Of a DNA stretch of 64,000 nucleotides, positions 10,150-33,656 are shown one piece after another. Each line of letters begins with the position of its first letter. Within the stretch, counting starts at the first letter, position 1. The notes under the pieces are model-generated. The model was given only the letters and a program-made list of their open reading frames with translations. It searched no databases and was not told the origin of the DNA. The position numbers and the translations under genes were made by a program. The stretch is from Shigella phage SHFML-26: sequence record KX130862; one strand, 5' to 3'.

Positions 10150-10620
10150 TTAATCATGTTTCCACACCCCATCGGTATTTGACCAAAGTCGCTGATTATC
10201 TGATCCTCGCCACAGCTTTTTAGTCGGAAGATTTTTCTCATACTTCCCATCAATAATAACATCAACATATTTAAGCATTTCTAGCTGTTTAATATCTTCA
10301 AACTTATATCCTGTCCACAACCAAATGCTTTTATTGGGATAAAGATTTTTAATAGTTTGAACCACAGAGTGAATCACGTCTCTGTTATCAGGATAAAGAG
10401 GGTCTCCTCCAGTTATAGTTAATCCTTCTATATAATCATTATTCAAACATTCAATCAATTGTTCTAGTGTTTCACCGGTGAATGGAATACCATTTCTAGC
10501 ATTCCATGTTGATTTATTATAACACCCTTCACATTTATGCAAACAACCTGTAACGAAAAGAACAGTTCTGCAACCAGGGCCATTCACAAAGCAGCACGGG
10601 TATATTCTGTCATAATTCAT
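10150..10620 (-). CDS. nrdG: anaerobic ribonucleotide reductase activating protein NrdG (radical SAM)
   Basis: CxxxCxxC radical-SAM motif (CLHKCEGC); starting at MNYDRIYP gives 156 aa as in T4 NrdG; track ORF starts at an upstream TTG. Confidence 0.9.
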   Translation of the reverse strand: MNYDRIYPCCFVNGPGCRTVLFVTGCLHKCEGCYNKSTWNARNGIPFTGETLEQLIECLNNDYIEGLTITGGDPLYPDNRDVIHSVVQTIKNLYPNKSIWLWTGYKFEDIKQLEMLKYVDVIIDGKYEKNLPTKKLWRGSDNQRLWSNTDGVWKHD

Positions 10621-11447
10621 AATAATATCCAATTTTTCCAAGCTTCATCAGTAGAATTACAGCGTTTTAGTATAAGATGTCTAGAAACTTTTATGGCATT
10701 TGAGCACTTTTTAATTGAATCATATTTAATACCGTCAACTGAAACGGTTTTGCTAGTTGGAGAAATTTTTCCATACATTGGATTTTTTGAACCAACTTGA
10801 AGTCCTTTTAAAGCTTTTGAAAGCTTTTGTCTAGATTCCAATGACATGGGAGAATTCTTTTTACCTTCAATAATTCGCTTGCGATGAAGTTCGCGTTCTT
10901 CTTCACTCAAAGAATTGTAATATTTTTTAACACCGTTTGATATAGATAATTTATCTTTCTCAGACCGCTCTCCAGCTAATTTACTTCTAACATCTTTTCG
11001 CTTCATAGCTATGCTTACGGCTTTATTTAAATTTGCTTGATGCTCTGGCGTACGTTTATATTTCTTTAAAGCACGTGAAATAGCTATTTTAGTTTCTTCT
11101 GTTCTCTTTTTACCTTTATTTGCTAAACTATTTTTGTGGCGATGTTCAAGTGTCTGTTCATAGGCAGTTCCACCTTTTCCACCAGGTTTAATATTATATG
11201 TATTTTCTTTTAGACAATACTCTTCAGTTACAAGTTCAGCTTCTTTATCATACATTTGCTTTTCATTATCAAAAACATATAAAATTTCTTTATAAAAATT
11301 TTTTCTACCATATTTTAATAAAGCAGCACGAATCAATGTTCCTGATCCCATATAACCGTCATTTATATTATCGGTGCTATGCGCACCGATATATTCCTTT
11401 GAATTAATTATATTTGTTATTTTATAAATTATATAATACCTATGCAT
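10617..11447 (-). CDS. GIY-YIG homing endonuclease (Seg-like)
   Basis: 276 aa; N-terminal GIY-YIG module (YYIIYKITN...EYIGAHST...GYMGSG); C-terminal NUMOD-like DNA-binding repeats; overlaps the nrdD stop and the nrdG start. Confidence 0.85.
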   Translation of the reverse strand: MHRYYIIYKITNIINSKEYIGAHSTDNINDGYMGSGTLIRAALLKYGRKNFYKEILYVFDNEKQMYDKEAELVTEEYCLKENTYNIKPGGKGGTAYEQTLEHRHKNSLANKGKKRTEETKIAISRALKKYKRTPEHQANLNKAVSIAMKRKDVRSKLAGERSEKDKLSISNGVKKYYNSLSEEERELHRKRIIEGKKNSPMSLESRQKLSKALKGLQVGSKNPMYGKISPTSKTVSVDGIKYDSIKKCSNAIKVSRHLILKRCNSTDEAWKNWILL

Positions 11448-13257
11448 GTTTTACTCGTTTTACCATTTCTTTCATTTTACCTAAATTCCATGGAACAACG
11501 CTAGGAGTTCCAAGATATCCGCATGTTCTTCTTATTGTATTCATCTTTTTAGGATCAGTTTCTCCACAAATAGAACAAACAAATCCGTTTTCAGTAGGAG
11601 TCATTTCATGGGTACTTCCGCATGTAAAACACTTATCTACTGGCATGTTAACACCAAAATAATCTAAATGTTGTACAGCATAATCCCATACAGCCTCAAG
11701 ACCTTTTAGGTTATTTTTCATATCAGGAAGTTCAACATAAGAAATGTGACCACCTGTCGCAATGAAATGATATGGCGCTTCACGAGAAATTTTTTCAAAC
11801 GGAGTAATATTTTCTTCTACTGAAACGTGGAAACTATTAGTGTACCAGCCTTTATCGGTAACATCTTTTACACTTCCATATTTTTCTGTATCAAGTTTAC
11901 AGAAGCGATAACAAAGGTTTTCAGCAGGAGTCGAATATAAACTAAAAGCAAATCCAGTTCTTTCAGTCCACTGTTTAAGATGAGCATTCATTTTAGTTAA
12001 AATTTCTTGTCCAATATCACGACCGACAAGAATATTCAATTCGTGAATACCAATGTATCCTAGGGACACTGAACTTCTACCATTTTTAAATAACTCAATT
12101 ATATCGTCATCAGGTTTAAGACGAACCCCGAATGCACCTTCTTGGTAAAGAATAGGAGCAACAGTCGCTTTAACTCCTTTTAAGGAACTAATTCTACACA
12201 TCAAAGCTTCAAAACATAAATCCATTCGTTCATTGAATAATTCAACAAATTTCTGTTCATTGAACTGTGTTCCAATATAAGAATCTAACGCGATGCGAGG
12301 AAGATTCAGTGTTACAACACCAAGATTATTACGTCCATCAAGAATTTCATTACCAGTCGAATCTTTCCATACGCTCAAGAAACTACGGCAACCCATTGGA
12401 GAAACAGGAATAGATGAACCAGTGATAGCTTTATTGTTCTTAGCTGAAATAATATCAGGATACATTCTTTTGCTTGCACACTCTAGAGCAAGCTGCTTAA
12501 TATCATAGTTCGGATCGTCTTTATAAAGATTAACACCTTCTTCAACAAACATAACAAGCTTAGGGAAAATAGGAGTTATCCCATCACGACCAAGACCTTT
12601 AATACGATTTTTCAGAATTGCTTTCTGAATCATTCGTTCAGTCCAGTCAGTTCCTGTACCAAATGTAATTGTTACAAAAGGAGTCTGTCCGTTTGAACTA
12701 AAGAGAGTATTTACTTCATATTCATAAGCTTGGAATGCATCGTATACGTCTTTTTCTGTTTTAGATTGAGCATAATTTAACGCATCAGCGATTTGCCATT
12801 TTTCTGCATCCTCAATATGTTTTGCATAGGTGCGTTTAACATAAGGAGAAAGTACTTTATCTACATTAGCAAAAGTCGTTCCGCCGTATTGGTGAGAAGC
12901 AACCTGTGCAGTAATTTGTGCCATAATTGCAGTAGCAACGCCAATTGATTTAGGAGTTTCAATCTGCGCATTACCTAGCTTAAATCCGTTCTCAAGCATT
13001 CCTTTTAAATCTACTAAACAGCAATTAGTAAATGGAAGAGCAGGGGAATAATCAATATCGTGGAAATGAATAATTCCGCTTTCATGCGCTTTCATAATAA
13101 AAGACGGGACCATATTTTTGGCAATGTGTTTAGACACAATACCAGCCATAAGGTCCCGTTGAGTTGGAAAAACACGAGAATCTTTATTAGCATTCTCGTT
13201 TAAAAGGTCTTTATTAGTTTTATGAATCAATCCTTCAATTTCTTTTTCAATTGTCAT
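11440..13257 (-). CDS. nrdD: anaerobic ribonucleoside-triphosphate reductase NrdD
   Basis: 605 aa continuous ORF; C-terminal glycyl-radical region and Cys-rich zinc site (CFTCGS...CSICGE); no intron interruption. Confidence 0.95.
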   Translation of the reverse strand: MTIEKEIEGLIHKTNKDLLNENANKDSRVFPTQRDLMAGIVSKHIAKNMVPSFIMKAHESGIIHFHDIDYSPALPFTNCCLVDLKGMLENGFKLGNAQIETPKSIGVATAIMAQITAQVASHQYGGTTFANVDKVLSPYVKRTYAKHIEDAEKWQIADALNYAQSKTEKDVYDAFQAYEYEVNTLFSSNGQTPFVTITFGTGTDWTERMIQKAILKNRIKGLGRDGITPIFPKLVMFVEEGVNLYKDDPNYDIKQLALECASKRMYPDIISAKNNKAITGSSIPVSPMGCRSFLSVWKDSTGNEILDGRNNLGVVTLNLPRIALDSYIGTQFNEQKFVELFNERMDLCFEALMCRISSLKGVKATVAPILYQEGAFGVRLKPDDDIIELFKNGRSSVSLGYIGIHELNILVGRDIGQEILTKMNAHLKQWTERTGFAFSLYSTPAENLCYRFCKLDTEKYGSVKDVTDKGWYTNSFHVSVEENITPFEKISREAPYHFIATGGHISYVELPDMKNNLKGLEAVWDYAVQHLDYFGVNMPVDKCFTCGSTHEMTPTENGFVCSICGETDPKKMNTIRRTCGYLGTPSVVPWNLGKMKEMVKRVKHA

Positions 13258-22208: not shown

Positions 22209-22238
22209 ATAGTACCATAAAGCTTTATGCTTGTAAAC
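22209..22238 (-). promoter_or_regulatory. T4-type early promoter with conserved leader
   Basis: Same module upstream of the ATPase gene (start 22174). Confidence 0.55.
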
Positions 22239-22261
22239 CGTTTTGTGAAAAATTTTTGAAA

Positions 22262-22288
22262 TAAAAAAGGGAGCCCGAAGGCTCCCTA
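22262..22288 (-). terminator. intrinsic terminator (UUCG-loop hairpin plus U-tract) after the nucleotidyltransferase-like gene
   Basis: Minus strand AGGGAGCCUUCGGGCUCCCU followed by UUUUUUAUUU. Confidence 0.65.
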
Positions 22289-30019: not shown

Positions 30020-30298
30020 TTATTCTTTAAATCTAATCAATTTATTCATAGACTTTGAAACTTCTGCACGAACCTCATGTAGATTTTTGAGCTGTTCAAG
30101 ACGCTGCGTATAGTAAGCAATTTCATCTTCTTCGAGACAGTCCTGTGAATCTTCTTTAAGATAACGTGCATAGTCCTGGAAAGCGTTACGGACTACTTCC
30201 TGGAAATCATCAAGACTTTGAATTTTCTTAGGAGCAACAGATACACGACGAGGGGCAGTATAATACTCATAACCAAACCCTGCGCTTAATTGAGCCAT
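30020..30298 (-). CDS. hypothetical helical protein
   Basis: Track ORF 30020..30340 trimmed to the ATG ([13 protein letters not shown]...) that abuts the upstream stop. Confidence 0.5.
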
Positions 30299-30600
30299 TA
30301 GTATTTTTCCTCTGGTTGGAACACTGCACGACAAGCCCACATACTGGATTCTTTGAGTTTCGTTTTAGCAATAGTTAACTGATCGAGGCTTTCGGCGTAA
30401 TTCTTCGCGAGTTCATCATCTTCACAGCTATCAAATGCTTCCCAAAATTCATCGTATAAAGCATCAAAGATAAGTCCTAAACGAACTTCAGCGTCTTTAA
30501 TAGCATTTACTTTACCGATTTTTTCGTCGGTATGTGGCTTATAACCTTTAATATCTTCAATCATATTTGACTTCCTCACCAGTACATAAATCGTATTCAA
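30298..30600 (-). CDS. hypothetical helical protein (vs.4 position; possible Acb2-like cyclic-nucleotide sponge)
   Basis: 100-aa ORF (start may be the internal MIEDIKG); second gene after regB, the position of vs.4 in T4; assignment by synteny only. Confidence 0.45.
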
Positions 30601-30778
30601 CTAAACGAATAGGTTCATGAATGCCATATCCCTGAACAGAAATTTCTGTAGTAGGATAAATTCCATTAATATCACCCATGTTCCATGCTTCGTTAAATTG
30701 CTGTTCGCCTGAATTACTAAACCATTCGGCGAAAGCATTTAGCACATCTTCAGAACCTTCAATAATTATCTTTGCCAT
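30557..30778 (-). CDS. hypothetical acidic protein
   Basis: 73-aa ORF. Confidence 0.45.
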   Translation of the reverse strand: MAKIIIEGSEDVLNAFAEWFSNSGEQQFNEAWNMGDINGIYPTTEISVQGYGIHEPIRLVEYDLCTGEEVKYD

Positions 30779-31140
30779 TACAAACTCTCGGTAAAGGTAC
30801 GAGCGATAACATCGCGCTGCTGTTCCGGAGTCAGAGAGTTAAAGCGAACTGCATAACCGGATACACGGATGGTCAGCTGCGGATATTTTTCCGGATGCTT
30901 AACTGCATCTTCCAGAGTTTCACGACGCAGAACGTTAACGTTCAGGTGTTGACCACCTTCAATTTTAACTGTAGGCTGTTGCTCAATTTCAATTTCACGG
31001 GCATGCAAACCGTAGAAAATTTCTGGGTCTACAAAAGAGTCCTCTTTAAAGGTTTTAGAGACAATAATTCGTGCTTGAATACCATCTTCAAAATAAATAG
31101 TACCTTTATGTGTGCCTTCAAGAATTTGATATGCTTTCAT
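30778..31140 (-). CDS. autonomous glycyl-radical cofactor (GrcA/YfiD-like)
   Basis: 120 aa; C-terminal half ([61 protein letters not shown]) is essentially identical to enterobacterial GrcA, including the RVSGYAV glycyl-radical site. Confidence 0.9.
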
Positions 31141-31147
31141 ATAAACC

Positions 31148-31477
31148 TCAATTAGAAAATAAATTTATCCAAGATTGTTCTTTAATTAAAAACGGCTCAG
31201 AATCATATGCCATTAAACTTTGCGTAATTAATCCTTTAAAAGGTCCATCAATAAATTCCATGGTAAAATATGGAATTTTATTCATTAGCCGTGCATTAGG
31301 AGCAGTGCACAAAACTCTGCATCCTTTGAATACGCCTTTTTGTAATTTGTATTGCTTAGGATAAAATTCGCTTAAAATGTTATTTTTTGCCAAAATTTCA
31401 AAATGATTCACCAATTTATTTTTAATAGTTTTTGGCGAAAAATAAAGATATTCGAAAAGCTGAGTGTCTGTCATCAT
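31148..31477 (-). CDS. hypothetical protein
   Basis: Track ORF 31148..31528 trimmed to the ATG at [10 protein letters not shown] to avoid a long overlap. Confidence 0.4.
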
Positions 31478-32166: not shown

Positions 32167-32640
32167 TTATTTGAATGATTTGACGTACTGAATAGAGCCT
32201 TTGCTATTCACGAAAGCGATTTTACCATTTTTATTATACATGGTAGCATTACGCTGATAACCATAAGTTTGTTTACCAGATTGATAACCAACTAATGCAA
32301 AATTATCTTCACCCATTTTATTCTGTTTAGCGCGAATGCGTTCATGACCATGTGCCATAAGAACCTTAGCATCACCAGTTGCAATGGATCGACGAGTTTT
32401 TTCATCTTCAACTGTATTAACAAAGTCGTCAAATGAATCAAATTTAGCATGAGATTTATTATACAATTTTCCATCTACTGCATAATTATATCCCTGTACA
32501 TCCATCTCAACTTCTGTACCATCATCCAATACAGCAGTAATTTTTTGACCTTTTTTAAATTTCAAAAGATCAGTAAAAGATTCAGCAATAATTTGAGAAT
32601 TAATAGCTGCTTCAGTGATAAATTCTTGATATGTTTTCAT
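32167..32640 (-). CDS. internal protein (head-packaged) with capsid targeting sequence
   Basis: 157 aa; N-terminus MKTYQEFITEA matches the T4 internal-protein targeting sequence that is cleaved by the prohead protease. Confidence 0.7.
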   Translation of the reverse strand: MKTYQEFITEAAINSQIIAESFTDLLKFKKGQKITAVLDDGTEVEMDVQGYNYAVDGKLYNKSHAKFDSFDDFVNTVEDEKTRRSIATGDAKVLMAHGHERIRAKQNKMGEDNFALVGYQSGKQTYGYQRNATMYNKNGKIAFVNSKGSIQYVKSFK

Positions 32641-32649
32641 GGGTTTCCT

Positions 32650-33066
32650 TTAAATGTAAATATTTTTACCGTAATACTTATACCAATGTGGTTTCATTAA
32701 AATTTTTTCATCAAGTCGTTGTTGACTCAATTTAATAGCTGATTTGCATGGATTATAATCATTTTTCCATTCTACTGGAATATCGCTGATGTCAGGAACT
32801 TCAGTATCTTTTATACTGAACCTGCGTTTTAAGCATTCCGTTATAATGTCTGATTGACGCTTTCGCAAAAATTCTAACTTATCGTAAAAGAACGTAACAT
32901 GACCAGAACCTAAAATAAACTTGGAAGATATTTTAAAATCTTTAACCCGTTTACCATTTGCCACATGTTTACGAACTATACCAAAAACACGTGGCAATTC
33001 ACGGTATTCTGCGATTAAATGTTGATCAGCAAGTTCAGATACTAAAGTCAAATTAATACGAGTCAT
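32650..33066 (-). CDS. denV: endonuclease V (pyrimidine dimer DNA glycosylase)
   Basis: 138 aa; [17 protein letters not shown]...; length equals T4 DenV; early promoter upstream. Confidence 0.95.
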
Positions 33067-33091
33067 TTTATCCCTCCAAGTAACTGTGAAT

Positions 33092-33121
33092 ATACTATCA
33101 CAATTCTAGGAGAAAGTAAAC
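33092..33121 (-). promoter_or_regulatory. T4-type early promoter of denV
   Basis: GTTTAC, 18 nt, TAGTAT, then GGAGGGA SD before the denV ATG. Confidence 0.55.
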
Positions 33122-33125
33122 AACT

Positions 33126-33656
<531 letters not shown>

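Follow-up and report, generated by a model that had tools for sequence, protein, structure and literature searches.

A segment identical to host grcA inside the T4-type vs.6 gene of Shigella phage SHFML-26 suggests gene conversion of a pre-existing phage gene

The vs.6 gene of Shigella phage SHFML-26 very probably encodes a spare part for pyruvate formate-lyase (PFL) of the T4 Y06I type, in which an internal segment was recently replaced, by gene conversion, with the corresponding part of the host grcA gene. The analysis was based on a stretch of 64,000 nucleotides (record KX130862; the whole stretch is referred to as the window) from this T4-like phage, a Tequatrovirus. As a gene, vs.6 adds nothing new since it is annotated, widely conserved and, in the form of T4 Y06I, was biochemically characterised in 2001. 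The gene is confirmed and was known before; what is of modest interest is an evolutionary detail in its DNA. The gene and its immediate surroundings are organized as follows:

30778..31140, minus strand: coding sequence of vs.6 (Y06I), phage autonomous glycyl radical cofactor, 120 amino acids plus stop codon, ATG start
31146..31149, minus strand: Shine-Dalgarno sequence GAGG, read from the sequence, 5 nt upstream of the vs.6 ATG and overlapping the TGA stop codon of vs.7
30557..30778, minus strand: vs.5, the downstream gene of 73 amino acids, taken from the ORF list, its start overlapping the vs.6 stop codon

The window gene is the ortholog of the known T4-type gene vs.6 (Y06I), and both the gene and its function were already known. 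The protein is identical to T4 vs.6 at 118/120 amino acids, which agrees with an earlier, sequence-only reading of this DNA that had assigned the gene to a known class with a homolog in T4. T4 vs.6 (NP_049730) is labelled autonomous glycyl radical cofactor GrcA in RefSeq, and the T4 vs.6 protein group (PHROG 1209, phrog_1209) matches residues 1-120 of the window protein (E = 5.7e-63). At the DNA level, vs.6 and the gene of Tequatrovirus NIC06P2 are 100% identical, 924 phage records identified by a nucleotide search contain 80% or more of the vs.6 sequence, and vs.6 is conserved in >1,500 phage records. The gene order is the same as in T4 (nudE, e, denV, then vs.7-vs.6-vs.5-vs.4, then regB), and the position of vs.6 within the denV-regB early region is conserved, with an order that matches T4 and phage KMB40. 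The TAA stop codon of vs.6 overlaps the ATG start codon of vs.5 (TAATG), and the placement of vs.5 after vs.6 is the same in T4 and related phages. The vs.5 protein has no Pfam match and belongs to no known family. A promoter and terminator scan around vs.6 returned counts that were not above those of shuffled sequence.

Some further features of this region were recorded. The gene at the T4 vs.4 position (30298..30600, minus strand), two genes downstream of vs.6, encodes a Pfam Acb2/Tad1 hairpin domain (E = 2.4e-18), a family of phage sponges that bind cyclic-nucleotide immune signals. The lysozyme gene e (33126..33620, minus strand) is directly followed by denV (32650..33066, minus strand); the ipIII and ipII internal protein genes, located between e and denV in T4, are absent from positions 32167..33620 of the window. 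The next gene after denV encodes a DUF7412 protein (32167..32640, minus strand).

The two halves of the vs.6 protein differ in their relationship to the host protein GrcA (YfiD). Residues 61-120 are identical to residues 68-127 of Escherichia coli GrcA at 60/60 positions, and the preceding residue 60 is Ile in vs.6 and Val in GrcA. Pfam Gly_radical covers residues 60-101 (E = 2.5e-18), and the best PDB match of the protein is E. coli GrcA (6OWR, E = 9e-42). The sequence-only reading had described the C-terminal roughly 60 residues as those of host GrcA, including the radical site; the alignment against host GrcA confirms this with an identity that is not lower than had been claimed, and the radical site falls within the identical part:

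30856..30858, minus strand: codon of Gly95, the predicted glycyl radical site within RVSGYAV, equivalent to Gly102 of GrcA and Gly734 of PFL

The N-terminal half is diverged, as had likewise been noted. Compared on their own, the N-halves of vs.6 and GrcA show 35% identity over 40 amino acids (BLASTP, E = 4.6e-6), and a profile comparison of eleven phage N-halves with 67 host N-halves resulted in an hhalign probability of 96.7% (E = 3.3e-10, 27% identity over 59 columns). Judged by these alignments, the N-half of vs.6 is a true but ancient homolog of GrcA over its full length. The protein displays the GrcA-type architecture: it is small and stand-alone, and its C-terminal end is a PFL-type glycyl radical domain that includes RVSGYAV. 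In a test for the GrcA equivalog family (NCBIfam TIGR04365, InterPro IPR011140), vs.6 scored 154.9 bits, below the 170-bit cut-off, because its N-half is diverged (E. coli GrcA scores 233.9 bits); the alignment reaches residues 20-120 of vs.6 only. The ten-stranded barrel with the catalytic cysteine loop is absent, models of the PFL family matching only the C-terminal ~60 residues.

At the nucleotide level, vs.6 can be divided into three segments:

30963..31140, minus strand: N-half segment with phage-type composition, homologous to the GrcA N-half at the protein level
30812..30962, minus strand: host-derived tract of 151 nt equal to E. coli grcA, codons 60-110, encoding the structured glycyl-radical domain
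30778..30811, minus strand: 3' end of the gene, 34 nt with 5 differences from E. coli grcA, all of them synonymous

The tract (gene positions 179-329) is identical to the grcA gene of E. coli SK1144 at 151/151 nt, and the tract of T4 is identical to E. coli grcA at 182/185 nt. A comparison with the grcA genes of 80 other species revealed 149/151 identical nucleotides in another Escherichia species and at most 138/151 (91%) in any other genus. The dS between the tract and E. coli is 0.024, compared with 0.40 between E. coli and Citrobacter, 0.57 between E. coli and Klebsiella and 1.2 between E. coli and Salmonella. When the whole 64 kb were searched against 5,426 complete E. coli genomes (megablast), the tract was matched in every genome; a weaker match to the paralog pflB was also present in every genome, and otherwise nothing of note was found. 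The match of the tract is well beyond chance. A comparison of the composition of the two gene halves, which the sequence-only reading had proposed as a check, separates them clearly: the C-half has a GC content of 49.4% and a GC3 of 43%, equal to E. coli grcA and within the top 0.15% of all 60-codon windows in the ORFs of the window, and the rest of the gene (the N-half) has a GC content of 34.5% and a GC3 of 22%, matching the phage background. A neighbour-joining tree built from the tract groups the E. coli phages and Escherichia together with 98% bootstrap support; in it, the T-even phages are monophyletic in 0/300 bootstraps, and E. coli grcA is placed with its Enterobacteriaceae relatives as expected. 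As read from the sequences, the transfer went from host to phage, given the host-like composition of the tract and the place of E. coli grcA among these relatives.

A second similarity to E. coli DNA was observed between two long ORFs of the window (22220..22271), where 52 nt are 96% identical to a site in one E. coli genome (BE104). The BE104 site has a truncated msrA on one side and, on the other, a truncated class 1 integron integrase beside aadA1; a piece of phage DNA may here have become part of a resistance or engineering cassette.

The distribution of phage-type and host-type sequence identifies the tract, as far as sequence comparison can tell, as an internal gene-conversion patch in a pre-existing phage gene and not as a fresh capture, because the N-half is an old homolog, old full-length homologs exist elsewhere and the last codons are phage-type. 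The N-half segment has no nucleotide similarity to E. coli grcA and follows phage descent, with 90% nucleotide identity to Mosigvirus and 72% to Jiaodavirus, and it is still recognisable in T5-like and Aeromonas phages. The last codons of vs.6 (GAG AGT CTA/TTG) are common to Klebsiella, Citrobacter and Cronobacter phages; together with the phage-type N-half they make the host tract internal, with phage sequence on both sides. The 5' edge of the tract is the point where any phage-host nucleotide homology begins, and it lies near the place where YfiD passes from its disordered half (1-60) to its structured half (61-127). Full-length homologs with a C-half that is 63-85% identical to the best host gene compared were found in Slopekvirus, Pseudotevenvirus, Karamvirus and Krischvirus as well as in T5-like, jumbo Yersinia and Aeromonas phages. 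In Slopekvirus, Pseudotevenvirus, Karamvirus and the T5-like and Aeromonas phages, the identity of the C-half to host genes is 75-85%. Slopekvirus has the Klebsiella-type residues LLDAVEH, and its nucleotides give no recent donor. A single recent capture, with an unrelated phage ORF joined to the 3' half of host grcA as a new chimera in the ancestor of these phages, would fit the host composition of the tract and its abrupt start at codon 60, upstream of which there is no nucleotide similarity. Such an origin is very unlikely, and the sequences already largely refute it through the N-half, which is by itself significantly homologous to the GrcA N-half along its whole length. Furthermore, the full-length architecture is also found in distant T4-like and T5-like phages with old C-halves, the phage-type last codons are common to those distant phages, and Klebsiella relatives with a homologous N-half bear a Klebsiella-type tract. 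The sequence-only reading had proposed a recent capture from the host; a recent exchange with the host is retained (151/151 nt, dS 0.024) and the fresh capture is given up, the N-half and the last codons being phage-type. At the other extreme, exchange might be denied altogether and the identity attributed to extreme purifying selection for the fit to host PFL and its activase PFL-AE. The protein is indeed very strongly constrained: the 61-residue C-terminus is unchanged in Edwardsiella, Serratia and Pectobacterium and identical across many Enterobacterales, so that protein identity alone does not show recency, and the near-identity of the proteins has to be abandoned as the sign of recency for which it had been taken. 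However, selection on the protein leaves synonymous sites free, and host genera with an identical protein differ at 9-17% of nucleotides, whereas the phage and E. coli differ at 0/151; in nucleotide sequence, the domain of T5 and Krischvirus, which are E. coli phages, is only 68-74% identical to E. coli grcA. These synonymous-site comparisons refute an origin without exchange, which is left with almost no probability.

Gene conversion of an old phage gene appears to have happened more than once, separately with Escherichia and with Klebsiella, as indicated by the tract sequences. Jiaodavirus, a T-even phage of Klebsiella, has a homologous N-half and a Klebsiella-type C-half (LLDAVEH vs LEDAVKH), and its DNA shows the same. 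A query with K. pneumoniae grcA (obtained from chromosomes mislabelled as plasmids in PLSDB) identified 106 phage records that are 95-99% identical in the tract segment, those among the matches listed being Klebsiella phages, and two IMG/VR contigs are 96.6% and 98.1% identical to the same gene. The alignments of K. pneumoniae grcA to the Klebsiella phages end 10-15 nt before the stop codon. For the E. coli phages, the identity to K. pneumoniae grcA is 86-88%, equal to the host-host distance, and the grouping of Jiaodavirus with K. pneumoniae has a low bootstrap value of 33-38% (neighbour-joining). A query with Salmonella grcA revealed no phage tract with >90% identity, and most other phage lineages compared show no recent exchange, so that host tracking does not apply throughout. 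Among the E. coli phages, the Tequatrovirus of the window and Mosigvirus have a dS of 0.38 in the N-half and 0.074 in the tract, with 3 synonymous differences seen in the tract vs 12.7 expected (P ~1e-3), and their flanking genes are only 65-83% identical. There is about an even chance that vs.6 is under continuing, homology-driven conversion by the grcA gene of the current host, the domain evolving in concert and the rest of the gene evolving by phage descent; the pattern suggestive of this is that Tequatrovirus and Mosigvirus have Escherichia-type tracts and Jiaodavirus has tracts of the Klebsiella type. Among the E. coli phages, conversion need not have been recurrent, since one conversion combined with phage-phage recombination would also make Tequatrovirus and Mosigvirus alike. 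Co-infecting T-even phages recombine freely, and the alleles of the E. coli phages share their 5' boundary and differ from E. coli by scattered single changes, both of which are compatible with one conversion, in the ancestor of Tequatrovirus and Mosigvirus or in one of them, that then spread from phage to phage with no ongoing host exchange. This more restricted history is possible but rather doubtful: the synonymous divergence of the tract is five-fold below that of the adjacent N-half; the flanking genes are just 65-83% identical; the 3' limit of E. coli identity differs among T4, the window and Mosigvirus, a variation that is decided by three or four nucleotides only; and a distinct exchange with Klebsiella is required regardless.

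Three observations on the records used in these comparisons are noted separately. A 19 kb IMG/VR contig (IMGVR_UViG_2706794630_000006) that was considered as a Yersinia-tracking phage allele was rejected; it contains a bacterial-type, full-length grcA gene, 91% identical to Yersinia artesiana grcA, and is probably host DNA and not a phage allele. One-base frameshifts within grcA/vs.6 were found in K. aerogenes NCTC10006 (LR134122) and in one further IMG/VR record (L124), and both are probably assembly errors of long-read or metagenome data. In PLSDB, several complete chromosomes of Klebsiella and E. coli are entered as plasmids.

Combining these results, T4-like phages have long held a full-length grcA homolog, the internal domain segment of which was, in Tequatrovirus and Mosigvirus, recently replaced by host grcA. 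The likely mechanism of the replacement is homologous recombination (gene conversion), because T4 readily recombines with homologous DNA in the cell, a well-known property of this phage. The 5' half and the final codons, both of phage type, stayed in place, and the Klebsiella T-even phages did likewise with Klebsiella grcA.

The function of vs.6 can be approached through the T4 protein. According to a report on Y06I, PFL activase activates this protein, which then restores PFL that oxygen has cleaved, and a complex of YfiD/Y06I with PFL cleaved by oxygen at Gly734 is described (Wagner et al. 2001, as cited in PMC8683613). The function was thus shown in vitro, for an ortholog that departs from the window protein at two residues. 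Two spare-part proteins have been validated for PFL, YfiD and T4 Y06I; Gly734 is the radical and cleavage site of the enzyme, and YfiD residues 61-127 have the fold of PFL residues 693-759 while the disordered residues 1-60 help binding and activation (PMC8683613). Because the structured half is unchanged in the phage protein, the same mechanism is the natural reading for vs.6 of this phage, which, going by its identity to these proteins, would work as a PFL spare part like YfiD and Y06I. As studies of YfiD and Y06I suggest, the host radical-SAM activase PFL-AE would place a radical on Gly95 of vs.6, and the C-terminal domain would substitute for the glycyl-radical segment of PFL that is cut off by oxygen at Gly734, restoring the production of acetyl-CoA and formate in an infected cell under trace oxygen. 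The phage might benefit in two ways, by keeping fermentative energy metabolism going and by keeping up the supply of formate, which would serve as reductant for its own NrdD. The reductant of class III ribonucleotide reductases is formate, for which a site in T4 NrdD has been proposed (PMC4493059). Since PFL makes formate and class III reductases use it, formate would provide a metabolic link from vs.6, through PFL, to the anaerobic reductase genes of the phage:

11440..13257, minus strand: nrdD, anaerobic ribonucleotide reductase, Pfam NRDD (E = 3.6e-171) and Gly_radical
10150..10641, minus strand: nrdG, activase of NrdD, Pfam Fer4_12 (E = 1.6e-48) and Radical_SAM

The sequence-only reading had located vs.6 close to these two genes, which turned out to be wrong: nrdD lies 17.5 kb away in the window, dozens of ORFs separate vs.6 from nrdD/nrdG, and the adjacency that would mark an accessory gene of the nrdD/nrdG operon is absent in the window. 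It had further suggested a repair role on either host PFL or phage NrdD, of which the PFL part is in line with the report on T4 Y06I (cited in PMC8683613) and the NrdD part finds no support. That vs.6 is a spare part for the phage NrdD rather than for host PFL is highly improbable. NrdD is likewise a glycyl radical enzyme that is cleaved by oxygen, and in Aeromonas phage Ah1 (367..3947) the vs.6 homolog is contiguous with reductase genes on both sides, with nrdD-nrdG upstream, the nrdG stop codon overlapped by the homolog, and nrdC-nrdH downstream. A comparative paper from 2006 also pointed out that vs.6 carries a Gly_radical domain and suggested a role in nucleotide metabolism (PMC1524935). 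However, a spare part has to reproduce the segment that was lost, and vs.6 has no similarity to the NrdD of the window (BLASTP, E = 3.8) but is identical to PFL at 49/63 and to GrcA at 60/60 positions, which makes NrdD an unlikely client. The 17.5 kb separation in the window also argues against it, and the arrangement in Ah1, the only one among the phages looked at in which the homolog adjoins the anaerobic reductase genes, would be explained equally well by the supply of formate.

A 276 amino acid ORF (10617..11447, minus strand) with a NUMOD3 motif and an I-TevI-type DNA-binding domain is located between nrdD and nrdG and overlaps the end of nrdD by 8 nt. In phage KMB40, nrdG directly follows nrdD, and the ORF looks like the insertion of a free-standing homing endonuclease.

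The DNA pattern of vs.6 shows in clean form how a strictly lytic T-even phage swaps an internal gene segment with the host chromosome. No description of this host-identical mosaic or of a host-tracking tract was found in the searchable literature, the reach of which excludes the older subscription literature on T4; what came up on vs.6 was the work on its function and the 2006 mention of its Gly_radical domain. If conversion is continuing, it would amount to marker rescue in nature, the donor being the host chromosome and the recipient a strictly lytic phage that degrades host DNA, and the tract would be a readable record of the recent host genus of a phage lineage. In that case it might be used as a marker of the recent host genus for T-even phages from metagenomes, and would offer a simple experimental system to measure host-to-phage recombination. 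More generally, vs.6 is a reminder that phage protein domains that are identical to those of the host need a check of synonymous sites before they are called recent.

Among known systems, E. coli GrcA (YfiD, 6OWR) resembles vs.6 as a stand-alone protein of ~14 kDa with a C-terminal domain identical at 60/60 positions and an N-half that is homologous over its full length. The N-half of vs.6 is, however, only 27-35% identical and 7 residues shorter, and vs.6, unlike E. coli GrcA, is encoded by a lytic phage inside an early-gene cluster. The C-terminal glycyl radical domain of PflB (PDB 1H16 and others) is identical to the C-terminal 63 residues of vs.6 at 49/63 positions, including RVSGYAV; unlike PflB, vs.6 has neither the catalytic barrel nor the Cys418/Cys419 site and is no enzyme by itself. 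T4 Vs.6/Y06I occupies the same slot between vs.7 and vs.5 and has the same E. coli-identical C-terminal tract. The window protein differs from it at two amino acids (Q54 vs P and R73 vs H), and the window gene has three more synonymous changes towards its 3' end, so that its unbroken match to E. coli stops earlier than in T4. The closest parallel to the pattern seen in vs.6 may be the mosaic psbA gene of marine cyanophages, in which intragenic recombination between phage and host copies has been described (Sullivan et al. 2006, PMC1484495). By analogy, both cases involve a lytic T4-like phage and a host-derived metabolic gene of which segments are exchanged with the host copy. In contrast to psbA, vs.6 is a different gene in a different host and environment, and its tract is limited to one structural domain and 100% identical over 151 nt.
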